NCBI GenBank assembly: GCA_050084515.1
Contig: CM114271.1
Span: 27,528,001 to 27,592,000 of the forward strand
Source: Blasia pusilla
Lineage: Eukaryota
DNA: 64,000 bases
Direction: 5' to 3'
Below, piece by piece: positions 4,029-61,680 of this stretch. The translations under genes and the position numbers were made by a program. The notes under the pieces were generated by a model. That model searched no databases. It had not been told where the DNA came from and saw only the letters and a program-made list of their open reading frames with translations. Positions within the stretch are counted from its first letter, which is position 1. Each line of letters begins with the position of its first letter.

Positions 4029-4654
4029 TGTCATGTCTCTTAGGATAGATCGGTGAGATCTAGTAGAGCGCCTTTTTGAGTAGCGGAGGACATGCTCAGT
4101 AGGTTGAGGATGACCTGCAGAGGCCCCGGGAAACCTGCTCTCGTTTCGGCTCATTTGGAGCTATATTGAGGATCTTACTATTTTAGGTAAGTACCATTTT
4201 GAGTATGTGATCGACTTTCTATTTTTTTAAGTGGCCCTTGACCTCCTACATCAGGTCAAGAGCCAAGGAGGTGACTTGGGAGCATAGGTTACCATGGAGA
4301 GAGCTTGGGAGAGGGGAGGGGTATACCTCAAGGAGAGAGAGTTTGAGAGCTCATTCTCTCTTTGTTGAACCTCTTGGCATGAGGCGGCGGAGCTATGGTC
4401 CCTTGCCTTGTGAGTGTAACCTAAGCCTCTCATTAGGAGAGTGGGTTTGGTTTGACATGAGAGACAATGCACACCTTTGAGAGCTATGGTGTGAGATGGT
4501 GTAGAGAGAGATTGGATCTTACTTTAATTGGAGATATTTTGGTACTTCTTGTCCTGTTGTTTAGATGCCATGATTTAGCATGGGATCGTGCGTGTTTGTG
4601 TAAGTGTTTAATGACAACGATGTATATTTTGTAGCGATGTGTATGCGCACGACA
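4029..4654 (+). mobile_element. Solo LTR of the DNMT/PHD Gypsy family
   Basis: TGTCA...CACGACA termini, 4-bp TSD CCTT (4025-4028, 4655-4658), and high similarity to the LTR at 43447-44088. Confidence 0.85.
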
Positions 4655-11386: not shown

Positions 11387-14300
11387 TGTTAAAAAAAGGA
11401 TGACCCTATAAACCCATAAGGTATGCACCGGGTTTAGGGCCACTCCAACTATATTAGCATTACTTAGAACCATAAGTCTAGTATATTAGCTAGACTCATT
11501 TCTTAGTGTTAAGGAGACTCTTTTCTCTCCTAAAGTGTGTCTTCTCTTTCTCTTTCATGTAGTACACTGATATGCTAGAGTTAACCTTGTTAATGAGATT
11601 TGGGACTTTGCATTTTTCTACTTTGGATTTTTATCATGGTATCAGAGCTTGGCTTAATGTGAGACTTGGCAATTGCTATGCTATGGTTTAATGTCAGACT
11701 TGGTAATTGCTATGTTGCAAAGTTCTTTCCATTGATTTATGTTTCTTTAGTTTTCCTATTTTTTCTTCTAATCTGAAAATTAGTCTTGCACTTCATATAG
11801 ACTTTTCAGTAGTAAAAGCTCATTGTCTTCACTTTTATTTCATTTCCATAGCAATGGCTTCTTCATCGTCCGATCATCGCCTTGAACGGCTTGATGAAAG
11901 AAACTGTAGCACGTGGTCCTTTTCCATGATGTATTTATTGAGTACTCAAAAACTCTTTAAATATGTAGAAGGAAAGATCGAGAGACCAGGTGAGGAAAAT
12001 GCTCGTGCGAGAGACAAATGGGATGAGGAAGAGATGGAAGCGAAGGGGATCGAAGCAAGATCCATAATTTGGATGAAAATGCATCCATCCAATTACAAGG
12101 CTATGATGGAGGTATGAGAAAATCACGAGGATTAGATGAGATGAATCTCACATTTTTGGGTCCTAAGGGAGAACGCACTCCCGTGATTGTGAAGAATGTG
12201 CATTGGGTGCCCAATGCATTAGATACGCTTCTATCGCTGCAACCTTATGCAAAAGGGGCTGCAAATTCAACTTGGATGGAGATAGGGTAGATTGGTTCCT
12301 ACCGTCTGGAGATCTACTTGCAAATAGGAAGCTTGAGGGAAAGGCTTATCTCATGTGTTGTGAAATTGAGGAGACCACAATTGTGGCGAAAGCTTCTCTT
12401 GCAGGTTGATCACTTCTAGAAAAATTGTTGGCAACAAGTTAAGGAGCTAATGCCAACATGTGAGGCAGGTATCGTTGGTAAGGCACACGGTCAGCCTTTT
12501 CCAGAGATGCATAAGCATGCCAAGGGAATTCTAGATGTGGTCATTTCTGATCTAGGATATTTTGATATGCCTAGCTTTGGAGGTGCTAAATGGATGGTTG
12601 TGTGGACAGATGAGTGTTCGTGATACACTAGCTTAGCTTTCCTCATGACTAAAGATAAAACTCATGAAGCATACAGGATTTGGGAGAGTGAAGTACAAAG
12701 AAAGATGGAGCGGAAGGTGGAAACTTTCCTGACTGACCAAGGCACGTAGTTCTTAAACCAGAAGCTTGGTTCATACTTCAAGGCGCATGGAATCCAAAAT
12801 ATGGTAACAACTTCATACACACATGAGGTTTTTGGGATGACACAATGAATGATGCGCACTATCTTTGAAGGAGTTTGCACACTCTTTGCAAGAGCAAAGT
12901 TAGATCGTTGCTATTGGGCCTATGCAGAAAAAATTGTTGTGTGGACTCTTAATCGGCCACCACATGCACAACTTGGTAGTAAGAAACCCTATGAAGCACT
13001 TTATAATGAGAAACCTTCTATTGCCCATGCTCATCTATTTGGTTGTTCTGCTTGGTATCATATACCAAAGGAAATCTGGAAAAAGCTTGATGAAAAGGCA
13101 AGGAAAGGTATTTTTGTTGGCTATTCTGAGATTGCAAACGGGTATGAGATTTATCTACCAGAGAGTAAGGAGATAATTCTTAGTCGTGATGTCATATTTG
13201 ATGAAAAGGAGGTAACAATTGTAACCTCTGACCTAGGTCCTTCAAAGAAAAATGACAACCAAGATGTTGACCTTCATGTTGTGAAGTTTGGTTCTTCCAA
13301 TCCGACAGAAGTCCCAAACACCATAGAAGTTGGTGATACAAATATTCTTGAAGAAAAGAGGAAATTGGCGGGGGCACAAAAATGGAAGGAGATGTTCATC
13401 TAGAACAACATGTGAAATCTCATGCAAGGAGTGGAATTGATCCTATCAACATTATCGATGGACCACGCAGGCGCCAAACACCTTGGAGAGAAGATGATGA
13501 CTTTGTACGAGAAGATTTTCTTTTGGAGATCATTGACTCAACAAATCTTCCTCCACACTCTCAACCCGATCCCAAGACCTTGGGAGAAGCTTTGAACTCT
13601 CCCTTTGCAAATGAATGGAAAATGGCCATGCAAGAGGAGTTGCAATCTCTAAAAGAGCATGGCACATGGGAGATCTTCCAGTTGGAAGAAAACCCATAGA
13701 TTCAAAATGGGTATTTCGCACCAAGGTTGCATCAAATGGATTAGTTGTGAGGTTCAAAGCATGGTTGGTTGCAAAAGGCTACTCCGAAGTCAAAGGTATT
13801 GAATACCATGAGACTTTTGCACATGTGGCACGTCTTGCAACAATTCGTGTGTTTTCTGCTCTTGCAGCAACTCTAGATTGGAGTGTTCAACAACTTGATG
13901 TTGTTTCAGCTTATTTGAATGGAAAACTTAAGGAGGAGAATATCTTCATGAGAGTACTTGAAGGTTTGGATACTCCTCCATAGCACAAAGGCAAGGTTGT
14001 GCGACTGCTAAAGACTTTATATGGTTTGAAGCAAGCTGTACGTGGGTGGAATGAGAACTTGGATTGCTCCTTGTTGGCACTTGGTTGGCAGTGCTCTAAT
14101 TCTGACCCATGTCTCTACACAATGAAAATGGATCAGTTGGTCCTTGCTCTTATTGTGTATGTTGACGATGTGTTGATTGGAGGGAAATTTTTTGAGATTT
14201 TTGTGGCTCAAAAGGAAGATTTGCAGAGGTGCTACAAGATGAAAGACCTTGGTAAGTTGAATCATTTTTTCTCGGAGCAAAGGAGATGGAGCCATTAGTT

Positions 14301-16299: not shown

Positions 16300-17670
16300 A
16301 GTGGGCGTAAAAATAGCCGCCGAGATGGATACTCGATCCAGAAATGATGATTATTGTCGCAATAGCCGCCACCATAATCGAAATAGCCGCCGTTGTAGAT
16401 TATTCGTTTCCTGAGAGGTGATCCTACTAAGAATAGCTGGGAAAATATCCGCCGTTGTAGTTATTTTGATTTCCTGAGATCTAAGCCTCCTCACAGTATA
16501 GCCGCCGAATTAGCTGCCGTGGTAGTTTTGTAGTTATCCTGAGAGGGTCGCCTTTTGAAATTAGCCTCCGATTTTTAGCCGCCATTGTAGTATTATTGTT
16601 GTCTTGAGAGTTGAGCCTAGTCATAAGAGTGGTCGACTTAGCGGCATTTGTAATTGATTTCCTTTCTTGAGAGCTTAGCCTACTGAGAATAACCACCGAA
16701 ATAGCCGTCGTTGTTGTTGTTTTGTTTTCATGAGAGGCGAGCCAACTCAGAATAGCCTCCAAATTAGCCGCCGTTGTAATTGTTTTGTTCTCTTCAGAGG
16801 TGAGCCAACTCAGAATAGCCGCCAAATTAGCCGCCGTTGTAGTTGTTTTGATCTTTTCAGAGGTGAGCTAACTCATATTTGTCGCCGAATTAGCCGCCGT
16901 TGTAGTTGTTTTGTTGTCTTTAGAGGTGAGCTAACTCAGAATAGTCATTGAATTAGCCACCGTTGTAGATGTCTAACTTTCCCTAGAGGTGAGCCAACTC
17001 AGAATAGCCGCCGAATTAGCCGCCGTTGTAGTTGTTTTGGTTTCGGGAGAGATTGGGCTTCTCAGAATAACCACCGAAATAGCCGTTGTTGTTGTTGTTG
17101 TTGTTTTGTTTTCATGAGAGGCGAGCCAACTCAGAATAGCCACCAAATTAGCCGTTGTTGTAGTTGTTTTTGTTCTCCTGAGAGGTGAGCTAACTCAGAT
17201 TTGTCGCCGAATTAGTCGCCGTTGTAGTTGTTTTGTTCTCTTCAGAGGTGAGCTAACTCAGAATAGTCACCGAATTAGCCACCGTTGTAGATGTCTAACT
17301 TTCACTAGAGGTGAGCCGAGTCAGAATAGCCGCCGAATTAGCCGTCGTTGTAGGTGGTTTGGGTTTTGGGAGATATTGGGCTACTTCGACTAGCCTCCGA
17401 AATAGCCGCCGTTGTAGTAATTTTGTTCTCTTCAAAGGTGAGGCTACTCAGAGTATCCTCCGTTGTAGTTGTTCGTACTCCTGATAGATGAGCCTACTCA
17501 AAGCAGTTGCCGTTGCAGTAAGAGGTGATAGTACTCAGAATAGCCGCCTAAATAGCAGCCATTGCAGTTGTTTTGTACTCCTGAAAGGTCACCTACTCGA
17601 ATAGCCGCCGTTTGCGGTTGTTTTGTACTTTCGAGAGGTTAGCCTACTCACAAGAGCCGCCGTAGTGGAT
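16300..17670 (+). repeat. Tandem array, 63-bp unit, within MULE 1
   Basis: Unit consensus about AGAGGTGAGCCAACTCAGAATAGCCGCCGAATTAGCCGCCGTTGTAGTTGTTTTGTTCTCTTC. Period 63 is seen between 16797 and 16860; roughly 20 variably degenerate units. Confidence 0.9.
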
Positions 17671-18514: not shown

Positions 18515-19652
18515 TGTGATTAGCCGCCATCCAGAAAATAGCCGCCGGCCTGTGATTAGCCGCCGTCCAGAGAATAGGCGCCGGCCTGTGATTAGCAGCC
18601 GTCCAGAGAATAGCCAACCGCCTAGAAAATAGCCGTCGGGCCTGTGAATAGCCGCCGTCCAGAGAATAGGCGCCGGCCTGTGATTAGCAGCCGTCCAGAG
18701 AATAGCCAGCCGCCGGGCCTGTGAATAGCCGCCGTCCAGAGAATAGGCGCCGGCCTGTGATTAGCAGTCGTCCAGATAATAGCCATCCGCCTAGAAAATA
18801 GCCGCCGGGCCTGTGAATAGCCGTCGTCTAGAGAATAGCCGCCGGCCTGTGATTAGCCGCCGTCTACAAAATAGCCGCCGGCCTGTGTATAGCAGCCGCC
18901 GTCCCGACAATAGCCGCCGGCCTGTGATTAGCCGCCGGACTGTGATTAGCAGTCGGACTATGATTAGCAGCCGAACTGTGATTAGCAGCTGTCCAGAGAA
19001 TAGCCAGCCGCCTAGACAATAGCCGCCGGGCTTGTGAATAGCCGCCGTCCCGACAATAGCCGCCGGCCTGTGATTAGCCGCCGTCCAGAGATTAGCCGCC
19101 GGCCTGTGATTAGCCGCCGTCCAGAGATTAGCCGCTGGACTGTGATTAGTAGCCGTCCAGAGAATAGCCAGCCGCCTAAAAAATAGCCGCGGGGCCTGTG
19201 AATAGCCGCCGTCCCGACAATAGCCGCCGGCCTGTGACTAGCCGCCGTCCAGAGATTAGCTGCCGGACTGTGATTAGCAGCCGTCTAGAGAATAGCCAGC
19301 CGCCTAGAAAATAGCCGTCGGGCCTGTGAATAGTCGCCGTCCCGATAATAGCTGACGGACCTGTGGATAGCAGCCGTCCCGACAATAGCCGCCGGGCCTG
19401 TGAATAGCGCTTGTCCCGAGAGTAGCTGCCGGGCTTGTGAAAAACAGCCGTCCTGACAATAGCCGCCGAGCCTGTGAATAGCAGCCGTCCCGAGAATAGC
19501 CGCCGGGCCTGTGAATAGCAGTCGGACTGTGATTAGTAGCCGTCCACAGAATTGCCAGCCGCCTAGAAAATAGCCGCCGGGCCTGTGAATAGCCGACATC
19601 CCGAGAATAGCCGCCGGGCCTGTGAATAGCATCCGTCCCGACAATAGCCGCC
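18515..19652 (+). repeat. GC-rich short-unit tandem array built on TAGCCGCCG
   Basis: Dozens of GCCTGTGA(T/A)TAGCCGCCGTCC(A/C)GA(G/C)AATAGCCGCCG-like units (about 16-36 bp sub-periods), flanked by purine-rich tracts. Confidence 0.9.
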
Positions 19653-19976
19653 AGGCTTGAGTGGAGAAGGGAGGAGAGGGAGGGATGGGAGTTAAACAAA
19701 CAAAAGCCTCAGAAAGAGCGAGGTGTAGCGTTTGGTGATTTAGTTCTCGGCCTGTGATTAGCAGTTATGGAGAATAGGCGTCACTCCAAGCCTGTTTCTT
19801 CTTGAACCGGGAAGGGTTTGGTCCATTATGGTTTGTGAACTTTAATACGTCACTGAGAACATACTTTGCATTCCAACATGAACAAATATCATAATTTTGC
19901 ACACCAAGAAACAAATGGGCTACATATGACAATTCCATCTGAGTTTATAAATTTCTTTTTGCAATCTGACATTCTT

Positions 19977-39193: not shown

Positions 39194-39640
39194 TCTAGAG
39201 CCCATTGCCCGCCTCTATGGTGGACCAACTTGGTGCCCCATGCGGTGTTACAGAGGGCGTATGCGAGAGTGGAGCGCCCCTCCCATTTGTTAGTGGATTC
39301 CATTCTGGATCCAGATCGTCGTTCACAGGCAATGAGGCACAATGATCGACCATCGTTGATTGTGGTCAATAGGGTACGCAAGCCGCGGGCAGCCTTTCCC
39401 ACATTTGTGAGTTTTCCGGCTTCCTATGCATACAAGGAGGCCGGTCCTGGCTTGGTTTGGGATGACCAGGTTCAGAGGTTGGTGGAGCCCAACGCCGACG
39501 AGAGAGAGCGGGCGATGGGATTTCCCACAAGAGTGACGGCAGTACCGTAAGTAGCAGAGGCATCACGACGCCATGTCTATGATCAGACGATGGACCTCAA
39601 CTGCTTGACATGGATCTTCAGCTTGGGAGTGGCTGAGCAG
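39194..39640 (+). pseudogene. Retrotransposon-borne C5-cytosine DNA methyltransferase domain, C-terminal part (DNMT3-like motifs VIII, IX, X)
   Basis: One frame reads SRAH(C)P(P)LWWTNLVP...FPTFVS...EPNADERERAMGFPTRVTAVP*VAEASRRHVYDQTMDLNCLTWIF, paralleling DNMT3 AAHRARYFWGNLP...EMERVFGFPVHYT...ARQRLLGRSWSVPVIRHLF. 5'-truncated. Confidence 0.75.
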
Positions 39641-39959
39641 CATCGGATGAGATCGCGACAGATCACAGCGGTTGCGTTGGTAAGCCCCATGCCTACCGAG
39701 ACGATGGGGGCAGTGGCTGGGGGCGAGAGCCGAGGAGATCGATACACTAGGGGAGATCGGGAGAGACACCCTTGGACTTCTTGGGATGTTTTGCAGGTAT
39801 GCCAGGAGATGTACGCCACAACATCAAGGGTGGTTCCGGGCACTGCATGTGGAGGAGATCAGAGTTTGCAGTTGGCTGCAGGAGAGCGGTCGAGTTTCGT
39901 TGTTCGAGATGGGGTTGCACCATAGCAACCACCGATATCTGCGCCGGAGAGTCCTACTG

Positions 39960-42900
39960 TAGTCACCATGGAGACTTGGGAGCCAGATATGGGCCCTAAG
40001 TTGACAGGAGGAGAGCCGCGCCGAATACATCACTTCCTCAGGACTTCTAGGAGCTGCTTTGCGTTTAGCATGGAGGATTTAGGTACGCTGAAGGTACCGG
40101 GGATCCGCATTGAGTTGTCGAGTGATACGCCGATCTTCCGACAACCCTACAGGTACAATGATATGGAGAGGGCTCTGATTCAGAGTAGGAGCCAAGACTT
40201 GGTTGGAGCATGGAGGATTTAGGTACGCTGAAGGGACCGGGGATCCGCATTGAGTTGTCGAGTGATACGCCGATCTTCCGACAACCCTACAGGTACAATG
40301 ATATGGAGAGGGCTCTGATTCAGAGTAGGAGCCAAGACTTGGAGGAGAGTATGCATTTGCCACTATCATGCCCGCCAAGAAGGATGTGCATGGCAACTAG
40401 ACGAATAGGCAGATATGTGCGGATTACCGACCTATCAATCGGTAGATGAAGTTCGATAGGTATGCCATGCCCACCCCTGAGGAACTCTTTGATGCGATTG
40501 GTCACGCAAAGTTCTTCAGTTCATTGGATTTGCGAGTCGGATACCATCAATTGCCTATCAGATTGGAGGACAGGAAGAAGACGGCATTTTGGGGCATCGA
40601 TCCTCACGGCAAGGATTGTTTGTACCAATGGCGGTTCTTACCATTTGGATTAAAGAATGCCCCGGTTGAGTTTTAGAGGGTCATGGATAGGATCTTGGCT
40701 GGTTTGGATTTTGCTAGGTGTTATATTGATGACATCGTAGTCTTTAGCCCCACGGTTGAGGAGCATGAGCGACATCTAGAGGAGGTGTTTCGACGATTGC
40801 AATTACATGGGTTGAAGCTACATCCAGGCAAGTGCAAGTTCTTCTATGACCAGATTGAGTACTTGGGTCATACGATATATCCAGGGGGCCTTGGTGTTCA
40901 GCAGACGAAGGTAGAAGTTATCTCACGCATTCCATTCCCTATAGATGTGAGCCGTGTTCGCGCATTCATGGGATTGGCGATACGTCAAGGGATTAAGTTC
41001 GATTGCAAAGCCGCTGACCTTGCTGATCAAGGTGGATCACGAGTGGCACTGGGGGGATGAGCAGAGAGTGAGCATTTCAATTGTTGAAGGACAGGTCGAC
41101 GTCTGCACCCATCTTGAGGAGATCGATCAGGGGGGCGTCCTTTCCATTGCACACAGATTGGAGCATGTTGGGGCTTGGAGAGGTGCTCACCCAACATGAT
41201 AATGAGGGTAGAGAGTTCGTGGTGGCTTACGCTAGCCGCTTGAATAATGCTGTAGAGGCGAAGAACAACTCGTATGAGGGTGAGTGCTTGGCTGCAGTGT
41301 GGGCTGTCGTGCATTTCAGGTGTTACTAATTCGGCAACCCCTTTACCATCATCACTGATCATCAACAACTGAAGTGGTTGATGGAGTCCGACAAGCTTAC
41401 ATGGAAGCTTGTGAGATGGGCTGTGTTGTTGCAAGAGTATGATTTTGAGGTGGTACATAGACCTGGGACGCTCAACCAAGATGCAGATGGGTTGAGTTGT
41501 AACCCATGCCCGAGTCATCGAGGTGCGACTGGTGCTCGATGGCATAGAGAGAGTGATGAGGAGTCAGTGCCAGGATGGCACGCATCAGCCTATTTAGGCA
41601 TGTTGGCTATGGAGAGCCAGAGTGTGGAGACTTCGATGGAGAGGTCTAGTGGAGAGTCCTTGGATCCCGAGGCCAGTGAGGAGACCACAAGTGGACGAGA
41701 TATTCGTGATGATGGAGTAGTCTTGGAGGACCTTCGTACTGGTAGCGTTGCGAGCATCGTGGGTGCTAGAGAGCGCAATCGGATCCTACAGCGGGCCAGA
41801 CAGTTCCGTTGGGAGGGGACATATGTTTTGAGGGTTTGGGAAGATGGCAGAGTATGCGTAGTGCCACATCCTTTGCAGAGAGCAGGACTAGTGCAGCATG
41901 CCCACGAGGAGTTGGGTCACTTTGGGGTGAAGCGGATGTACAACTTGCTCCAGATTTAGTGTTGGTGGCGAGGCATGCAGACTGACGTTTAGTAGTTTGT
42001 TGCCAGGTGTATGATCGGGTCCGGGCATCGTTCAATGCTGTGACTCCATAGTTGCATCCATTACCGATCATGGGCTTAGGGTATAGACGGAGTTTGGATT
42101 TTGTAGGACTTTTTCCTTTGACAGAGCGTCACAGTCGTTATGTGTTGGTGATGGTCCAGCACTTCTCAAAGTGGATCGAGTTGGTTGCATTGCGTGACAA
42201 AGCGAGTGAGGGAGTAGCTAATGCCTTCCTTGACTGAGTGCTGAGTCATTATGGCCTATTGGCTAAGGTGTTGACAGACCATGGTACCGAGTTTCGCGGT
42301 GAGTTCCAGACCTTGTGTGATCAGGCGCTGATCGACCACCCCACGACTTCGCGAGATCATCCTAAGGCAGATGGATTAGCGGAGAGAGTTGTGCAGACGG
42401 TGAAGAGGGGTTTACGCAAGTATGGCTTGCAGAGAGGTCATCTAGGAGATTGGGACCTCAAGTTGCCATGGTTGGCAATGGGATACAGATTCAGCAGGCA
42501 TGCATCCTTACCGTCTTTTGCACCGTACTTGCTACTTTATGGCCAAGAGCCAGATTTATCTACGGCCATTCGTCGAGATGTTGGTGAGGTGTTGGACCTT
42601 GATGACCCAAATGTATGGATGCGAGCATGTTCTCAAAGGGTTGAGTTGTTTCGGAGAGTGATGCCCATGGCATTTGAGAACTTGGCGATTGCGCAACATC
42701 AGGATATGTTGAGGTATGCGACTATTCGGGGTGATGGTTATCGACCAACTATCCGGCGGTTCCATCAAGGAGATTATGTCTACTTGCAGCACACGACACC
42801 GACGATATTGGATGTGACTATAGGGCGCTATCCTGAGAGTGCGTGACGTTTTGCCATCCGGTGTTCTCTTGCTAGAGGGACGCGATGGTATGGTATGGAA

Positions 42901-42990
42901 GGACCATGTGCGTAATTGTGCGCCATGTCACCTTCCTAATATTGATGGTACAGTAGATCCGAGCTTAGCAGTAGTTCCTGTAGGCTTGTG
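39960..42990 (+). pseudogene. Ty3/Gypsy pol remnant: RT - RNase H - integrase
   Basis: FSSLDLRVGYHQ, LPFGLKNAP, YIDD at 40722-40733, LHTDWS, SYEGECLAAVWAV, HEELGHFG, LTDHGTEF, DGLAERVV. Includes a 140-bp tandem duplication (40067-40340). Confidence 0.95.
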
Positions 42991-43125
42991 TGTATGTTGT
43001 GTGGTTCTGCTCGTGGTGCGGCCACGATGCTGATCTATGATGGATGTTCGAGAGGTTGGCATATGGCATGTCTGACGCCACCTCTCACTAAGGTTCCTTG
43101 GAGATGATGGATGAGTGCTAGATGT
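42991..43125 (+). pseudogene. PHD finger at the integrase C-terminus
   Basis: CMLC...MLI(Y)DGCSRGWHMACLTPPLTKVPWR*WM(S)ARC fits the C4HC3 PHD pattern 'CD.C.RG(F/W)H..CL.PPL..VP.G.W.C..C' with two decayed Cys. Confidence 0.85.
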
Positions 43126-43446
43126 ACATAGCAGAGATACTAGGCATGTTTCGATTCCAAATTTTTCTGTGACATGGATGATAGGAAGGTGACTAACGAT
43201 GGGGCCAAATGAGCATCCGACCTTTCTGCTCTCAGCGTCCTAGAGATGTATGTCGTGGTAGGTAGGGATAGATGGCTATTTGGAGTTAGAGGGACCTAAC
43301 CACCAGCAGGGGGACGATTGGAGATATTTTGGTACTTCTCGCCTATGTGTTTGGATGCCATGAGTTAGCATGGGATCATGCGTGTTTGTGTGTGTGTTTG
43401 GTGACAACGATGTATGTTGTGTAGCGATGTGTATGCGCACGACAAC

Positions 43447-44088
43447 TGTCACGTTTTTTTGGATAGTTCGGTGAGATTTAGGAGAGCGCCTTTGTGAGTA
43501 GTGGAGGATAGGTTCAATAGGTCGAGGATGAATTGTTAGGGCCCTCGGGAAACCTGAGAGAGCAGGTTTCCCCTTTGTTTCGGTTCATTTGGAGCCATAT
43601 TGAGCAACTTACTATTTAGATAAGTACCATTTTCAGTATATTATCGAGTTTTTATTTTTGGTAAGTGGCCCTTGACCTCCTATATCTGGTCAAGAGCCAA
43701 GGAGGCTACTTGGGATAATAGGTTACCATGGAGAGCGCTTGGGAGAGGGAAGGGGTATACCTCAAGGAGAGAGAGCTTGAGAGCTCATACTCTCTTTGTT
43801 GAACCTCTTGGCATGAGGCAGTGGAGCTATGGTCCCTTGCCTTGTGAGTGTAACCCAAGCCTCTCGTTAGGAGAGTGGGTTTGGTTTGACATGAGAGAGA
43901 GTGCATAACTTTGAGAGCTATGGTGTGAGATGGTGTAGAGAGATATTGGATCTTACTTTAATTGGAGATATTTTAGTACTTCTTGTCTCGTTGTTTGGAT
44001 GCCATCAATTAACATGGGATTGTGTGTGTTTGTTTGTGTGTTCGGTGACAGCGATGTATATTGTGTAGCGATGTGTATGCACACGACA
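43447..44088 (+). mobile_element. 3' LTR of the DNMT/PHD Gypsy element
   Basis: TGTCACG...CACGACA. PPT-like AGCAGGGGGACGA near 43305-43317. Preceded by an extra LTR 3'-end fragment (43318-43444) and followed by a partial LTR duplication (44089-44277). Confidence 0.85.
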
Positions 44089-44279: not shown

Positions 44280-46600
44280 GGTCTGCACGTGCTCATCTGC
44301 CAATCGTCGAAGCTCCTCAGTCGAGCCCCACAACGGCACCTCTCTTCCAGGGAATCATGCGGCTACCATAACAATCCTCTCCATAGAAATGTCCGGAATG
44401 GGTGTATCCTCTGCATGGACCCTCAATCAAATCACTAGGCCAAGTGATGGCACTGCTAAATGCTGCTAAGGTCGCCACCTCTCTTGGCCGTCGCTCGATC
44501 ATTGCACATGTGAATCGAATGGGTAATGAGCTAAGGCGCCCATCATCAGATTGCCATCCTGGTCTGTAGCACGCTGATTTCTCCCAATATTCTTGGGAAA
44601 ACCCATTGGGTATAACACTACGTCATCAACCAAGACGTTGTAGGACTCTCCACCAGTCACTATCGCCTTGGCTCGCACCACGGACTCATCTGTAGGATGT
44701 CTGAGGTGAATCCTCACCATGATCTCCTGTCGGGTGATATATTGTGTGGTACTCGCTCCACCCAAGGATGACTATATCCGGAATGGACAACGCTCCACAT
44801 TAGCTCTCGTCAAGCCCAATCCTCTGAATGACGCTTTCCCCAACATCAGGGGTTGTACTCCTGAATCCAACAAGACGCGCTGCGGACTAAAAGCTCTACC
44901 TCCAGGACTCACCAACTGGAAGAGCGCTCCTCGGTTATCCAGCAACACAACACCAAGAGAAGCCATGGCACACTCTATCGCGGGTCTAGCGGGCATCTCC
45001 GCCATCCTAGTAGCCGCAGCTTGCCATGAATCTGACGTGGACGGCACGAGCATCCGCTCCAAGGGCAAGTCCATCACCTCCTCTGTAATCACCTCTAAAC
45101 GTGATGCAGGAACTCCAACTCCACGCTCACATAGTGAAGCGGCCAGCCAAAAAGCCTCGGCGGGCGTACCCCCCAACGTCATAACATCGGAAGCAGAAAA
45201 TAAAGGAGTGGGGTACACAACGGTGGCCGCCCCCAACAACGTGCTCGACACATGCCCCTCATGAGCATCAACAATAGGAGTCGTCGTACTCGCTTCTCCC
45301 ATTGTCCTTTGTGCCTGCACACCAACAACATCACCAACTCTCTAGGAACTCTGATCAGGACCCATCAATGGGGTCCTCATCGCCTTGGACAACGTGAAAG
45401 ACTGAGGAAGCCTAGTCTATTTCCTGGTTTCCCCTCGCTGTGGATCCAACTTTGCGGCTGCTCCACACGTCACAATTGCGGATGCCTCCATCTGGGCAAC
45501 CCCGCACATCCAACCAGGATCCTCCAGATCTCTGGCTTCTCCATATGATGTCGATGCCATAGATTCGGCATCAGGTAACCTCAATGCCATAACGGCAATC
45601 TGCTCATGTAGCTGCTGTATCTGAGCAGCCATCCCAGCCTCACGTCCGGCGTCTCCCTCGGCGCGTCTAGGTGATGGTACTCTACCTCCTCCATGGGCAG
45701 CTCCACCACCGTGTCGGGAAACTCCAGCTCCTCATCCCCCAACAGGACCACATGGTGCATAATCTCTAGGCCCACCCGGACCGGCTACTTGCTTTGGTGC
45801 CCTCTCTGCCCCTCGATCCGGACGTAACTCATGATGAAAACTGAAACACCTGGCGCGTGTATGACCATACCTCTGACAATAGTCATAATGATAACCTCCT
45901 GGTATAGCACCATCTCCTCCTCCATGTTGAGGCACACGTCCATGATCCTAACGAGTGTAATCGCGCTCATGATGGGCTCCACCACATGACCAACAAGTAA
46001 TAGTAGGCGGTTGCTGCTGAGCCGCATATGAAGGCGCACGTCTCTGTGGCACGGCCCCCCGGTATCCTCCTTGAACTTGTGGTGCCACAGTCGACCTATC
46101 TCGGAGTCCACGTTGCTGCATAGGTAGTGCAGACAATCGTGACTGCTCTCGCCCAGAACCCGTGGTGGCTACGCTCTCCTCCGCCATGTTGCACTCAATG
46201 TTCTCGGCGGTCTTGAAAACATCTCTCAATGTAGGGGATGTGTTCATAAGAAGCACCCCCTCCCGCACCCGTGTCCGCAGGGTCTGGTCTAGCATCGCTC
46301 ACCATGACTGGATAGCTTGAGCCTCTGTCATCCTCTGAGTGACGTTGATCAACCAGCGCAAGCGAGTCTAAGCCTCACGCAAACTCTCACCCGGGCGCCT
46401 CTGGAAGTCGTGGATGCTCCGCAACTTCTCCGTCCGTACCCCCTGGTAGCTCGCCCTCAACTGAGCAAAGAACTCAACCACAGGGTTGAACCTGGACAAA
46501 CCCGACTAGACAGTGCAACCAACTGCTCCCGTGCGAGTGAGCGTCATAGTCACCATCGCCGAGGATTTTTGGCTGGCCGTTTCACTATGTGAGCAGAGTT
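44280..46600 (-). pseudogene. Gypsy gag (two CCHC-like knuckles) and aspartic protease, inverted copy
   Basis: CWSCGGAHHERDY, YCQRYGHTRARC, protease VLLDSGVQPLMLG and YNVLV. Truncated at 44280 just before the expected methyltransferase N-terminus. Confidence 0.85.
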
Positions 46601-46639
46601 GGAGTTCCTCCATCACGTTCTGAGGTGATTGCAGAGGAG

Positions 46640-49065
46640 GGGATGGAGTTCCGGAGGTAGAGCTTTTAGTCTGCAACGCGTCTTGTTGGATTCAGGAGCA
46701 CAACCTTTGATGTTGGGGAAAGAGTCATTCACAGGATTGGTCTTGACAAGAGCTGATGTGGAGCGTTGTCCATTTCTGATACAATCATCCTTGGGTGGAG
46801 CGAGTACCACACAGTATATCACCCGACATGAGGTCATGGTGAGGATTCGACCGGGACATCCTACAGATGAGTCTCTGGTTCGAGCCAAGGCGATAGTGAT
46901 TGATGCAAAGTCCTATGACGTCTTGGTTGGTGGAGCAGTGTAATACCCGATGGGGTTTTCCCTGGATTATTGGGAGGAGTCAGCGTCCTATAGTCCAGGA
47001 TGGCAGTCAGGTGATGGGTGCCTTAGCTCATTACCCGTTCGATTTACAGGTGCAGTGATCGAGCGACGACCAGGAGAGGTGGCGACCTTAGCAGCATTTA
47101 GCAGTGCCATCACTTGGCCTAGTGATTTGATTGAGGGACATGTCCATGTAGAGGATACTCCCATTCTTGAAATTTCTATGGAGAGGAGTGTTATGGTAGC
47201 CGCATGATTCCCTGGAGAAGAGGTGCCGTTGTGGGGCTCGACTGAGGAGCTTCGATGATTGGCAGATGATTGTGTGAGAGTGGAGCGCCCCTCCCATTTG
47301 TTAGTGGATTCCATTATGCATGGAGGTCATCGCTCACACGCAGTGAGGCACGATGATTGACCACCGCTGACTGTGGTCAACATGATTCCCACGTTTGTGA
47401 GTTTTCCCGCTTCCTATGCATACAAGGAGGCCGGTCCTGGCTTGGTTTGGGATGACCAAGCTCAAAGGTTGGTGAAGCCCAATGCCGACGAGAGAGAGCG
47501 GGCGATGGGATTTCCCACAAGAGTGACGACAGTACCGTCAGTATCAGAGGCATCATGATGCCATGTCTTGGGTCAGGCAATGGACCTGAGCTACTTGACA
47601 GGGATCTTCAGCTTGGGAGTGGATGAGCAGCGTTGTCGTGTCGAGAATCTTTCTTCGAGCAAGGGCGGGCCTTCTAGCTGCGGTAGATGCGGTCGATGCA
47701 AGGTGAACTCTCTAATAAGTTCTCCTTTTTCAATACAAAATTATGATGTACACTCTCCATTCTCTCACGACAGGTATCACAAATGGAAGTGCCGAGGCGA
47801 TCACTTCTTCGTAACATCGGACCCCGAAATTCCTAACTATAAAATCCCTATAAACTATTTTACGTTTGTACACGAGGAAGATAGCACAACTAGTGTTAAA
47901 CCCTACTTGACCAGGCCTATTGACATCCATGGATCGCTATATAAGGACATACAAAGTACAATCCCATGTCCTTCCATATGTGACGATAGGAAGAATCACC
48001 GGAGTTGGAGATTGCATGACCTGGTTCATGAACGCCTCCCCAAAGTGATAAACTAAATAGCGAGTGAACCAGTGCCTATCTACAAAGAGTACCTTGACAT
48101 GGTAAGGATTGAGGAAAGGAAAGTCGGGCACAGCTCGTGCTCCACCCCTATCCATGCTTGACAGACATTCTCTACTCTCCTCAAGAATGGGTTTTGGCGG
48201 AGTTATTCTCCCAAGAGGGTAATCCACTCTCATTGGGGGAAGTAACAAGCCAAAACTTCCGCTATTTTAGTATGACTAAACTCCTCTACGGTGACAAACC
48301 TCTCATACCCACACACACACACCACACTCTAGAAATCTCTCAAAGAATAGACCATAGTCAAGTTACTCTCCCAAGAGGGGTGATCCATTCTCATTGGAAG
48401 AGCAAGCAATCCCAAAGCCATACACTCAAGAGAGACACGAGAGACTCAAGATGTGGAATAGAAGGTGATGAACCCTTGAAGGTCCCTCCTCTTTATATAC
48501 TCACAAGGGATCCACAAGAGTACGAAATAGAGCTGATCTTATCTTGTGCCACATGGCTTCCTCTCAAGGCTTAGCCAATCACATTTTGACACAAGTAGAT
48601 TTCCTCTTATCTCTTTCAAAATATCCTCTTTTACCCACATGATATTTTCCAAATTACCCCAACTAACCTAGCCACCAACCAAGACTACTTTTGCTTTTCA
48701 TTAAAGCAACTACTTTACTTTTATAAAGTCATCTTTTATTTATAACCTCCTTTTCCTAAAGTTGGGCCCGCATAAAAGAGGCACCATAAAGAGGTTTAAA
48801 CATAAGAATCTCCTTTTTCTAAGCCAATTTACTTAATACTAATGAAACTCTATCTAACACTTAATGACGAAGGAGTTTACACACAGGTTGATTTTACTAT
48901 ACGACAGCGGTGGATGAGATTGCAAAAGATCACAACAATTGCGTTGGTGAGCCCCATGCCTACCGAGACGGTGGAGGTAGTGGCTGGGGGCAAGACCTGA
49001 GGAGATCTACACACAAGGGGAGATTGGGAGAGACACTCTTGGACTTCTTGGGATGTTTTGCAAGA
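46640..49065 (+). pseudogene. Second Gypsy fragment: protease - linker - (deletion) - DNMT motifs IX/X, interrupted by a solo LTR
   Basis: VLLDSGAQPLMLG...YDVLVG, then RVERPSHLLVDS...KPNADERERAMGFPTRVTTVPSVSEAS*CHVLGQAMDLSYLTGIF (about 47276-47610). Resumes at 48911 after the insertion. Confidence 0.85.
47634..48906 (-). mobile_element. 1.27-kb solo LTR, copy B
   Basis: Near-identical to 6280-7551, flanked by GCGT/GCGG. The paralogous empty site near 39635 has a single copy of the target. Confidence 0.9.
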
Positions 49066-49561
49066 TTGACCATAAATTTTTACTCGCAACTCCAAATTGC
49101 ACACCGTTTGTTGCCCAACGTGCACAATTTCACAATCTACAACGGCGTCAAAAAATATTGGGAATTTTGACATTTGAGTAAGAATTGATAGGGATTGTCG
49201 TAAAGCCCAATGTCTCTTTCTCCTACATAAAATTTTGCGGCGCTTCCGCGCTGATTTCTCCCAACCGAAATGTAAAACCTGTAAAAATACAAATCAGCAA
49301 GCTACATAGTGCTTGCGAAAGCACCAACATGGGGCAACCCGCCCCCATAATCAATCCCTATTAGAAATTGAGCAGCGCTTCCGCGCGCCACTCTTCCACA
49401 CAAAAAATCGGGAAATGCAAAGAACAATCAAAGCGGCCCTTGCTCCGATGAGCACTCCCATGAGCCACTGAACGGGGAACACGGTCCCCAACCTACAAAA
49501 ACGATGAGTGACCAGCGAGCTCCCCCATGAAGCTCTCTCACTCTCTCATTCTCTCTTTGTG

Positions 49562-50074
49562 AAGTAAGATCCAATCTCTCTTTACACCATCTCACACCAT
49601 ACCTCTTAAAGGTGTGCACTATCTCTCATGTCAAACCAAACCCACTCTCCTAATGAGAGGCTTGGGTTACACTCACAAGGCAAGGGACCATAGCTCTACC
49701 GCCTCATGCCAAGAGGTTCAACAAAGAGAGAATGAGCTCTCAAGCTCTCTCTCTCCTTGAGATATAACTCTCCCCTCTCCCAAGCTCTCTCCATGGTAAC
49801 CTATTCTCCCAAGTCATCTCCTTGGCTCTTGACCTGATGTAGGAGGTCAAGGGCCACTTACTAAAAGTAGAAAGTTGATCATATACTCAAAATGGTACTT
49901 ACCTAAAATAGTAAGTTGCTCAATTTGCTCCAAATGAGGCGAAATGAAGGGGAAACCTGCTCTCTCAGGTTTCCCGGGGCCTCAGCAGGTCATCCTTGAC
50001 CTGCTGAGCATGTCCTCCATTGCTCACAAAGGCGCTCTACTAGATCTCACCGATTTATCCTAAAAGACTTGACA
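49562..50074 (-). mobile_element. 5' part of a DNMT/PHD Gypsy LTR, inverted
   Basis: Reverse complement starts TGTCAAGTCTTTTAGGATA and matches about 4029-4525; truncated at GGATCTTACTT. Confidence 0.85.
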
Positions 50075-58272: not shown

Positions 58273-61200
58273 TGTCACGTTGTGGTCCTTGGTTTTTCCA
58301 AACATAATAGCCCTTATTACTCCCGTTTCCATTGGCTATTTTTCTTTCCAAAAAATGTCTTAATTCATTTTTTAGTCTATTATAGTAAATTATAAAAGAA
58401 CTTGTGTGATGAAAAACATGGCCAAACTACCATTCTCTATCCCAATAACCATCTCTCAATTGCAAAAAGCTTTTTTTTTTGGAAATAAAATCCACCCAAA
58501 AATTATCAATATTCTATTGTTAGTTACATGGTTATTGTAAGATGGTCCATATGACACTCCCCTTTGGAAAGGTTTATATGAAACCTTGGGATGATGGAAT
58601 AGTCAATAAGGTAGGTAATTTTATGGTCTATTTGAGTGCATCACATAAGAATTCACACCCACTAGAAAAAGGTGTGAATTATCTTTTGCACCTACTATCT
58701 TGAACATCCGTCTTGTATGATGTGGAAGCATGCATTCAACTTGTCATGCTCTCGTTCCTCACTTGCACCCAAACACATTATCACGTCTTTTGGGATGGAT
58801 CAAGTCTAATCAATAAGTCTTTTGTAGAATACCTTCCGGGATATTGGAGTACAACCTCAAGAGATCGAGGATAATCTATTGGGGCCTCGGCTAATCCGAG
58901 AAAGCAGATTTCCCTTTCGTTTTAGCTCATTTGGAACTATATAGAGAAGCTTACTATTTTTAGTAAGTTACCGTTATGAGTATAGTTGACTTTCCATGTA
59001 AAGAAGTGGCCCTTGACCCCCTACAACAAGTCAAGAGCCAAGGAGGTGACCTATGAGCATAGGCCACCATGAAGAGTTTGGGAGAGGGAAGGGGATACAC
59101 TCAAGGAGACAAAGCCGTTGCCCATTTTTTTTTATTTAGTTTGAGTCTTGAGATGGAGTTATTCCTATTGGTGCTCCTAGTAGCATACTTTAGCTTTTTG
59201 GATTTCATTTGTACAGGTTTGCAATCTTTTGAGAATGAAATCACCTTGGAAGTGTTGCCGAATTTTTTGTATGAGCTTAGGTCGTGGGCTACAATATAAT
59301 TTCCGCTAGTTTCATATGGAAGGTTGGTAGAAGGAGCTCATTTGATGATATTTTTTATGAAGGAGTTATGCACCTTGTCGAAGAAATGGTGTGCAATTTC
59401 AACACTGGAGCTCAAAGTGTGGTCATACTAATGGGGTGCCATAGCCAACACGTGAAATCTTGTAACTTTGTTTGGTGGGTTAGGAAAAGTAAAAATCCTT
59501 TTATTTTAGTGCATAGCAAGACAAGGGAAAAAATAATTTGACGGTGAAGTAAAGTGAAAACTTTATTTAGTGGAGTATGAGCCAAATTTGAGATAATTTT
59601 GGTGAGTTGATCTTGTTTAAGGGGTTAGTGGAATGGAAAAAAAACATTGACTTTTGAATAAGGTTAAAATAGAGCCATGTTTACCTATGTGTGACATAAC
59701 ATAATTACCATTGACCTTCACCAACCATCTATTGTTCAACCACGGTCGTCTATTCGATGACTGTCAAGTACCGCTTGTCACTATTCGTGTGTCGTCGATG
59801 TATGGGGTCAAGTTTCGAGGTATGGTTAATCATGCATAGTGATTGGTAGCTGCTTGAAAATGATTGAGTATCATGCCATGATTCCCATACACGCAATGCG
59901 CCACCGATTGTTGCGCCGTGATACTTGTGGCCGCACCTTCTTGATCACAAAGACGCACGAGCACTAAGGAGTAGAGCGTGTATTGCTAATAGATGAGGGG
60001 ATGCCATTGTATGTCCCCTCCCATCACCTAATACAATGTTATTTTTATTTCTATTGTGCAGTATCGTACCGCAGTACCCTCCACTACACATCGAGGAGGT
60101 TTGAGCATCGTCAACATCGGGGGAGTAGGACTTGCTGACTAGAGGAGTTATCTTCACAATTGAGTTGGGATCTAGGTTTGCAATTTTTGGGGAGCAAAAA
60201 TGACATTGTTTCCACATTATCCATTCTAGTCTTTTGCCCTACTTGTGTGAGGGAATTCCGAGTATTGGGTAGTTTTTTTGGCATATAGGGTTTGTACGGA
60301 TGTTGAGAGCGTCATTGATGTATGAAATTAGGGGACATAGAGCTATGTGGGATTTCTAGAGTTCTGGGTATGCTATGTGGATGAGATGATAGACCAGTGA
60401 TTTGTCGCACGATGCCACTTGTTGCCACACTACGCACATCTCGATGGGAGGAAGTGGAGATTGAGTGCCGCACATGTTAGTTCTAAGTGATTGAGGGATT
60501 GCTCGTAGGATTGAGAGTGATCGTATGAGGGGGCACGAGGGTCATCATGGCATCTTTTCAGTACTTTGAGAGGGAAGGTGGTGTGTCTACGAGTAGCTCT
60601 AGAGGTCTTCCGTGGAGTGGCACGAGGTTTCATGGGTCTCTACATGAGGGATTACCTTGACCTCCTTCTGTATTGTCCTCAAATGAGGAAGAAGATATAG
60701 AGGGTGATTTTGTTAGTGTACTATCCTACGCAATGAGTGTTCCTATCGTTAAGGCGTACGAGATGGATGACCAAGGTAGAGGACCACATAGGTTTTTGGA
60801 TGTTGTGGATACCATAGAGTTACACAACTTCATTGCGGAGTTTAGAAGATGGTGTGACTCACACAAGGCCAAGAACTCCAGAGAGTTCAACTCTTTTAGA
60901 ACATGGAACGGGATGTTCTAGCAACTAGAGGTCCATGGATAATTATCATGAGTTTTCCTAGAGGTACTCACCGGAGATTGAGGCTTGGAGCCTATACTAT
61001 GATCCGCACTACGTGTCGTGTCATAGACTAAGCCATTTCTAGATGAGGAGGAGGAGCTAGGGGAGTCTACTTCCTCTGCCATAGGGATGAGTCAGACTAG
61101 GGCAATTGCATCGTCCAGTTGGCCGGGTTTGGCCTAGGTTCAACCCCGTGGTGGAGTTCTTTACGGAGTTATGGAGGAATTATTAGGGGAGACGGATTGA

Positions 61201-61680
61201 GAAGTTGTGGAGCATCCATGACTTCCATAGACACACGGGAGAGGGTTTTTGTGAGGCATTTACTATCTTGCTTTGTCTGATTAGTGTCACTTAGGGGTGA
61301 TAGAGGCACAAATTGTTCAAGCATGGTATGGGATGCTGGAATCAGACATGCGAAAATGGGTGAGGGATGCAATACTTATGATGCACACCTCACCTACATT
61401 TAGAGATTTGTTTAATATGGCGGAGTGCATTGAGTGCAACATGTCCAAGGAGAGTGTAGCAGCCATGAGTCATACGCAAGAGCAATCACGATTGCCTTCA
61501 CCACCAATGCAGCAACGTAGATTTTGAGAGAGTGTGGCACCACAAGATCAAGGAGGTTACCGTGATCATGTGCCATAGAGACCCATGCCAGCATATGCGG
61601 TTTAGTAGCAACCGCCAAGAGTTATTTGTTGGGCATGTAGTGGAACCCATCGCCAACAAGATTGCATCGTCAGGGAAGTG
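58273..61680 (+). mobile_element. Older relative of the DNMT/PHD Gypsy (LTR remnants plus gag)
   Basis: 58880-59110 resembles the family LTR (AAGTGGCCCTTGACC...TCAAGAGCCAAGGAGG). Gag MLESDMRKWVRDAILMMHTSPTFRDLFNMAECIECNM matches 45948-46295. Left boundary (TGTCACG at about 58273) is tentative. Confidence 0.65.

Follow-up and report, generated by a model that had tools for sequence, protein, structure and literature searches.

Features of the locus

The window is the whole stretch of DNA analysed here, 64,000 nucleotides of the liverwort Blasia pusilla (GenBank assembly GCA_050084515.1, contig CM114271.1, positions 27,528,001 to 27,592,000 of the forward strand), and coordinates refer to it. 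A decayed Gypsy pol region was located on the plus strand at about 39194-43131. Its parts and the repeats of the element are listed below.

39194..39922, plus strand: 3' half of a DNMT3-like C5 methyltransferase and linker, 5'-truncated (homology to full-length copies begins at 39194)
39923..39931, plus strand: in-frame stop TAG, then CAACCA (CAR YYA context), separating the Gag-protease-DNMT frame from the RT-RNaseH-integrase-PHD frame (copy alignments)
40446..41057, plus strand: reverse transcriptase, disrupted by stops, by frameshifts and by an internal duplication upstream (PF00078, E 4e-08 and 6e-15; translation)
41072..41440, plus strand: RNase H (PF17919, E 1e-19; PF17917, E 2e-14)
41879..42843, plus strand: broken integrase portion comprising the zinc-binding domain, the DDE core and the first part of the tail (PF17921, E 0.0015; PF00665, E 0.005)
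42824..42990, plus strand: remainder of the integrase tail (beta-strand, SH3-like) with the linker, in another frame (translation; deletions relative to copies L029 and L156; model strands 306-356 of an unbroken copy)
42991..43125, plus strand: C4HC3 PHD finger, decayed, final domain of the frame (PF00628 match and other copies)
43317..43444, plus strand: terminal repeat B, first copy, 128 bp, ending in CACGACA, with a short G-rich tract before it (repeat comparison)
43447..43960, plus strand: terminal repeat A, second copy, 514 bp, starting with TGTCACG (repeat comparison)
43961..44088, plus strand: terminal repeat B, second copy, the 3' end of the element (first and second B copies 86.7% identical)

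The stretch 42991-43125 was matched by the PHD profile PF00628 with 29.3 bits (E 8.7e-07; cut-off 24), a score obtained with the internal stop read as X. The first Cys codon was found at 42991-42993, the His codon at 43060-43062 and the last Cys codon at 43123-43125; one further codon precedes a stop at 43129-43131. An earlier reading of the letters alone (the sequence-only reading) had placed a PHD finger after the integrase tail, and both the Pfam check and the C4HC3 positions bear this out. The plain PPT/LTR that it had placed behind the finger was not found; split repeats in the order B-A-B lie there instead.

The finger of the window copy has lost two ligands, the third being Tyr (43036-43038) and the seventh Ser (43114-43116), and is interrupted by a TGA at 43105-43107. 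Relative to two other copies, L029 and L156, 2 bases were deleted after 42828 and 1 base after 42990, and the 54 codons of integrase tail between both deletions are out of frame. As the deletions shift the integrase tail, the PHD finger cannot be translated from the window integrase. The finger is real, yet the window copy cannot make it. Past the PHD stop, no frame of chromodomain length was found in L156, the single copy read there. A conserved NCAPCHLP motif was observed in the integrase tail just before the PHD linker (window 42912-42935). It has two Cys positions, and one Cys together with Pro is invariant among 56 sequences.

The DNMT piece of the window copy is without motifs I, IV and VI, which other copies have. 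The first A copy, which forms the 5' end in full elements, is missing as well. The inner B-A junction (43438-43453) consists of CACGACA, two bases and TGTCACG, and looks like the joined ends of circular cDNA inside the element.

In total, the family accounts for about 11.4 kb of the window. A solo A+B unit lies at 4029-4654; a second one, flanked by its own 4-bp duplication, was seen in L061. More family pieces (inverted Gag-protease, protease, DNMT tail and a minus-strand 5' end) occupy 44280-47633 and 48905-50074. Copies L034, L050, L064 and L066 terminate after the first B. Pieces of a more divergent subfamily, 70-78% identical, were found at 58842-61675, and divergent subfamilies with a PHD of their own also occur in L037, L048 and L061. 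Tandem arrays with 63-bp and 18/37-bp units are present at 16397-17595 and 18515-19659. The retroviral SH3-like domain at 12849-13400 (PF25597, E 2e-27) probably comes from another LTR element.

The family in the liverwort genome

Searching the 390-Mb genome with a 501-base query gave 4,556 first-look candidates, 40 of which were scored (the 39 others were 90-91% identical), and a PHD peptide query gave 9,173 genome candidates, 150 of which were scored; both totals count candidates and are not copy numbers. An NF-YC gene of the host is closest to proteins of Riccia and Marchantia, which points to a complex thalloid liverwort. From 29 other copies chosen for their likeness to the stretch under study, 26 were scored, and the integrase core and the PHD were in frame in 16 of them, 15 at a distance of exactly 693 nt. 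The other 10 were frame-shifted by seven different distances, as decay gives. All eight PHD ligands were kept in 11 of the 26. Six loci, selected for long frames out of the 150 scored, were unbroken from the integrase zinc domain through the end of the PHD (417-584 aa) and then ended in a stop; the D, D and E motifs were all matched in three of the six. It had been considered beforehand that other copies might lack the PHD, or might never carry it in frame with integrase; the in-frame copies and the unbroken loci show that neither is so.

An AlphaFold2 model of one open locus contained the zinc domain, core, long helix, beta tail and a PHD, the last at pLDDT 84-92. Foldseek matched the integrase model to the PFV and Ty3 integrases. 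In copy L031 the integrase core matched PF00665 with E 6.5e-11.

Full copies are about 9.4 kb long and contain a Gag-like region with two zinc knuckles, an aspartic protease motif, a C5 methyltransferase, RT, RNase H, integrase and PHD. The Gag and protease labels are presumptive, taken from motifs (zinc knuckles, LLDSGA), and rest also on Pfam matches in the relative P0115; Pfam did not recognise the Gag, protease and DNMT pieces of the family itself. The DNMT assignment rests on PDB and pairwise matches. The best PDB match was DNMT3A (E 3e-10), and the catalytic motifs FGG, PC and ENV were found in 18/22, 22/23 and 20/22 copies, respectively. That the element also encodes a DNA methylation writer had been proposed from the sequence alone, and the DNMT3A match and the motifs in most copies agree with it: the enzyme is DNMT3-like.

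The ends of the element are split repeats in the order A (514 bp)-coding-B (128 bp)-two bases-A-B, starting with TGTCAC and ending with CACGACA. The A-coding-B-A-B plan was also present in the relative L132. Several Ty3/gypsy features were found, namely TG...CA ends, target duplications and the order protease-RT-RNaseH-integrase with a DDE integrase. The two equal LTRs with a tRNA primer site of Ty3/gypsy elements were not; the repeats are split, and in all six copies read the 5' repeat was followed by a purine-rich stretch and no TGG. Among the 11 pairs that could be read at both ends, nine had an exact 4-bp target duplication, and the other two agreed at 3 of 4 bases. Active ancestors of these copies inserted by means of a DDE integrase. 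The 11 duplications had no sequence bias, and none had a central CG; they are uninformative as to chromatin. Membership in the Phygy group of REXdb, for which the available text of PMC6317226 gives the insertion preference NCGN, was rejected since that preference appeared in 0/11 duplications.

In nine elements the two A copies were 86-96% alike, which indicates that those nine insertions are old. Pairwise transitions among copies reached 10.8% at CG and 12.9% at CHG sites, against 4.1% at CHH. Such CG/CHG decay is as expected of methylated repeats, and it fits silencing after insertion equally well.

As shown by three stranded RNA runs, the family is transcribed. About 6,000 reads per run, of 10-12 million, matched one copy at 85% identity or more, across all 30 bins, and depth in the PHD bin was 139-179 in the sense-indicating direction against 5-8 in the other. 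Since most reads were 85-95% alike to the copy used, they stem from other copies. Depth changed in a step of about 1.5-fold near the DNMT-RT junction. No pile-up of read starts was seen at the step, and none of the 15 splice joints listed (there were 93 more) was canonical; a subgenomic RNA is a possible source of the step. The liverwort host carries thousands of candidate copies that are old but transcribed in sense.

A conserved stop between DNMT and RT

In 18 of 18 copies, the DNMT and RT regions are divided by a stop codon in frame with them (TAG in 17, TAA in one), with CAACCA next in 17. The junction codon was a stop in all 23 covering alignments, and the next commonest stop site was one in 5/23; a decay hot spot at the junction was rejected on this difference. 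UAG followed by CAR YYA is the readthrough signal of TMV according to the available text of PMC2754532, and CAACCA in 17/18 copies places the junction stop in this TMV-type context.

Six of 75 metagenome loci had DNMT together with an RT match of at least 63%. In five of the six, the stop lay 87 bases before the RT match, the same place as in the family; the sixth was heavily decayed. The stops of these five relatives were followed by CAACC and then C or T, so that 5/6 CAR YYA positions match, and ATG or GTG came next. Because these relatives lack the A of the sixth position and have a potential start codon next to it, re-initiation rivals readthrough as an explanation. Six more distant metagenome loci, which form a separate sub-lineage, had a linker without the stop, and DNMT and Pol were continuous in P0115 (one frame of 2,811 aa) and in K. 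nitens P0206.

In the liverwort branch, PHD and DNMT would share a polyprotein only via readthrough or re-initiation. The sequence-only reading had combined the reader and the writer in one polyprotein, a view that the invariant stop (18/18 copies, 23/23 alignments) does not support. From the conserved stop one would expect far more methyltransferase than integrase, and the prediction makes the question of self-cDNA methylation by the element's enzymes testable in a liverwort. No account of a DNMT-RT stop was found in a literature search whose reach ended short of figures, bioRxiv supplements, Repbase, theses and most subscription papers.

The lineage across green plants

When the integrase tail plus PHD was used as query, PF00628 was found in 46 of 47 matches. 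An RT-RNaseH-only query gave PHD in 84 of 120 among the matches listed, as scored with a profile made in this analysis, and most of the 36 listed matches without PHD were cut short or were outgroups. In P0144 and four proteins of Closterium the sequence ends after the integrase tail, without PHD, which indicates that the finger is dispensable. The chromodomain profile PF00385 was found in 0/47 integrase relatives and in 0/120 RT relatives among the matches listed; membership in the chromoviruses was rejected for want of a chromodomain. The PHD occupies the position of the chromovirus chromodomain, as had been suggested.

Named members were found in Marchantia, Coleochaete, Closterium, Klebsormidium, Haematococcus, Pleodorina and Hariotina. 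The family was sister to Marchantia proteins (0.99) in a tree of 125 RT sequences, and the lineage formed one group against three outgroups (support 0.90), with two K. nitens proteins on separate branches. Streptophyte-type branches of the tree have DNMT ahead of RT; in the chlorophyte-type branch (0.93) it comes behind RNase H. PHD and DNMT occurred together in 48 of the 125 proteins, in both main branches.

The closest named relatives, P0140 and P0141, are the Marchantia polymorpha gene models Mp2g26090 and MARPO_0091s0058, both DNMT-RT-RNaseH remnants. Elements of this kind can inflate the numbers of DNMT and PHD genes counted in bryophytes, Mp2g26090 being an example. In chlorophyte-type members (P0188, P0207, P0209, P0232 and others) DNMT is situated between RNase H and integrase, and 300-600 extra residues often follow the PHD. 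P0080 and P0217 are lineage members labelled bacterial in metagenome bins; the labels probably reflect plant or algal contamination.

Comparison of the PHD with 11 relatives gave a pooled dN of 0.33 and dS of 1.57, a ratio of about 0.21 (integrase tail, 0.18), where dS is near saturation and all pairs share one query. A within-family dN/dS (0.56 for the PHD) was set aside because the copies had been picked by likeness to the stretch under study. The PHD is a true, selected C-terminal integrase domain in the family. The window copy by itself, out of frame and broken, would suit a one-off captured host fragment without function. The probability of such a capture is close to nil, given that elements of liverwort, Coleochaete, Klebsormidium and chlorophytes all have the PHD at this place and that it is under purifying selection. 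We take the stretch 42991-43125 to be the decayed last integrase domain of a Ty3/gypsy lineage of green plants that is kin to KnitGypsy-Dnmt3.

The joint occurrence of PHD and DNMT in both main branches might mean that the finger acts like the ADD of DNMT3, positioning or activating the element methyltransferase on H3K4me0 chromatin, and the unmodified-tail class of the finger (see below) would suit that role. Coupling of this kind, which the sequence-only reading had drawn from host DNMT3 enzymes, is weakened by the two positions of DNMT in the lineage, which differ between the branches (ahead of RT or behind RNase H), and by members such as those of Closterium that keep DNMT without PHD. Moreover, in the family the stop parts DNMT from PHD, the two are about 1,000 residues apart with a protease in between, and no ADD domain was among the 60 PDB matches listed. 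We consider it distinctly improbable.

Predicted ligand of the PHD finger

The best solved PHD matches were KDM5 PHD1, CHD4, PHF12, KAT6, DPF PHD2, PHF21A, ATXR5, BAZ2, AIRE and UHRF1. Apart from those named in the next sentence, most of these best-match PHDs also read the unmodified H3 tail. KDM5B, BHC80, AIRE, UHRF1 and DPF3b are given as readers of the unmodified H3 tail in the available text of PMC4225485, where the KDM5B contacts to H3 Ala1 and Arg2 are L325, D328, P347, G349 and W351. As shown by alignment to KDM5B, the Ala1 pocket (L325, P347, G349, W351) and the Arg2 acid (D328) are kept in the family PHD. The acids D308, which contacts K4, and E321, which contacts T3, are missing in this branch; at the D308 position no acid was found in the family, and one was found in 2 of its 12 closest relatives.

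The full PHD pattern was found in 106 of 156 proteins scanned. Asp followed Cys3 in 95 of these 106 lineage PHDs, and the terminal Trp or Phe was present in all 106. The cage Trp, two residues before His, was present in 0/106; Gly, Ala, Leu or Pro took its place. Judged by these residues, the finger is of the unmodified-H3-tail class, without the H3K4me3 cage. It would probably bind H3 Ala1 and Arg2 with no preference for K4me3, and its discrimination at K4 is predicted to be weak in this branch.

Many PHDs read H3K4me3. A finger that did so here would steer insertion to promoters, and the sequence-only reading had proposed that the PHD reads the H3K4 methylation state. K4me3-binding PHDs do exist, e.g. 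those of BPTF, ING2 and TAF3 (PMC4225485, available text). No chain of ING, BPTF or TAF3 was among the top 60 PDB matches, however, and no aromatic cage was seen in any of the 106 fingers, which makes H3K4me3 reading very improbable. This branch also lacks the acid that binds K4, a further point against reading of the H3K4 methylation state.

Among the 12 closest relatives the PHD has a net charge of 0 to +3; the median for chlorophyte-type fingers is -4. Since the D308 and E321 acids are absent and the finger is neutral to basic, its affinity for histone may be low. The same charge and the missing K4 and T3 acids would also suit a PHD kept for a non-histone role, either as a structural or protein-protein module of the integrase or as a binder of DNA or of the nucleosome surface. 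The conserved Ala1/Arg2 pocket (Asp in 95/106, Trp or Phe in 106/106) argues against this, though these positions are also partly structural. We regard a non-histone role as unlikely, yet as the strongest of the alternatives to binding of the H3 end.

Proposed mechanism

Binding of the H3 end leads to the mechanism that we favour by a modest measure of confidence, in which the finger would tether processed integrase, or the intasome, to nucleosomes with free H3 ends, while DNMT, in excess, would act separately on cDNA. Active ancestors of the element had Gag-protease-DNMT3-like, then the conserved stop, then RT-RNaseH-integrase-PHD. If Pol was made via readthrough of the stop, the methyltransferase would have been as abundant as Gag, and integrase-PHD scarce. 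The protease would release integrase-PHD, and the finger may then bind the free N-terminus of histone H3 (Ala1, Arg2), tethering the intasome to nucleosomes. Insertion would be biased to bulk or silent chromatin, away from H3K4me3 promoters, and DNMT would most likely work separately, on new cDNA. Chromodomains are thought to bias insertion away from active promoters. The steering of integration by chromatin state that the sequence-only reading had suggested is plausible.

A wider proposal is tentative, and we hold it less probable than its contrary. According to it, a leaky stop in the liverwort branch would set DNMT at the level of Gag and keep integrase-PHD low; the particle would methylate its own cDNA, and the unmodified-H3 reader would place it in silent chromatin. 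The DNMT3-bearing and the PHD-bearing Gypsy elements would belong to a single unnamed lineage that dates back as far as green plants themselves and remains abundant, and transcribed, in land plants. If true, this would be a non-chromovirus route to heterochromatin targeting with self-methylation.

Comparison with known systems

The nearest described system is KnitGypsy-Dnmt3 of Klebsormidium nitens, reported with Gypsy domains, DIRS-like repeats and a coding region that includes a Dnmt3-like enzyme (de Mendoza et al. 2018, PMC5890265, available text). The liverwort family likewise has a Dnmt3-like enzyme and A-coding-B-A-B repeats on a Gypsy body. Its DNMT is 41% identical to KFL_009030040, K. 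nitens proteins fall in the same RT tree, and its integrase tail plus PHD shares 47% identity with a different K. nitens retrotransposon protein, which has PF00628 at its end. The two differ in that DNMT lies in the Pol ORF of KnitGypsy-Dnmt3 (PMC5890265, available text), whereas a conserved stop separates DNMT and RT in the liverwort family, and in that the host of the latter is a land plant with thousands of candidate copies. The text and three supplement files of PMC5890265, which do not include Fig. 4c, name no PHD. In its available text, PMC12344493 only repeats the 2018 Gypsy-Dnmt3 report.

The Chlamydomonas element Gypsy-7a_cRei resembles the liverwort family in that its Gypsy polyprotein includes a PHD, and its insertions fall between genes 2.6 times more often than expected (PMC9940879, available text). 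It has been proposed there that the PHD finger of Gypsy-7a_cRei and REM1 limits harmful insertions (REM1 is also cited in PMC6673714). The comparison is by description, and the same text names no methyltransferase for Gypsy-7a. PHDs in retrotransposons have been called widespread (PMC6673714 and 10.1101/2021.11.30.470311, in the parts available).

Chromoviruses also have a chromatin reader at the integrase C-terminus (PMC6317226). The liverwort family differs from them in its PHD in place of a chromodomain, its split repeats and its predicted ligand, the unmodified H3 end and not methyl-lysine. In the available text of the REXdb paper (PMC6317226) there is no mention of PHD or methyltransferase. 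EpiLTRs combine a chromatin reader and a DNA methyltransferase in one LTR element; these are chromodomain, DAM and DNMT4-like (bioRxiv 10.64898/2026.05.21.726589, available text), in contrast to PHD and DNMT3-like in the liverwort family. The finger itself is like KDM5B PHD1 in its Ala1 pocket (Leu, Pro, Gly, Trp), its Arg2-binding Asp and its lack of an aromatic cage (PMC4225485, available text), and unlike it in the non-acidic residues at the D308 and E321 positions in this branch.

Gypsy PHDs, Gypsy-Dnmt3 and reader-plus-writer LTR elements are already known from the literature available to us. The sequence-only reading had rightly cautioned that PHD-bearing Gypsy elements may be catalogued already: Gypsy PHDs and Gypsy-Dnmt3 are in print from algae. 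No account of a PHD-tailed Gypsy-Dnmt3 or of land-plant members came up in the literature search; Supplementary Table 6 of 10.1101/2021.11.30.470311 may list such fusions. By that search, a lineage uniting PHD and DNMT3 across green plants is new, as are its massive presence in a liverwort, the finger's class and the conserved stop. Transposon methylases were said in 2019 to be absent from land plants such as tracheophytes (PMC6338049, available text), and the family extends methyltransferase-encoding retrotransposons to land plants, at high copy number. It may also provide a second, chromodomain-free candidate for chromatin-guided integration, with a prediction at the level of single residues: H3 Ala1/Arg2, not K4me3.
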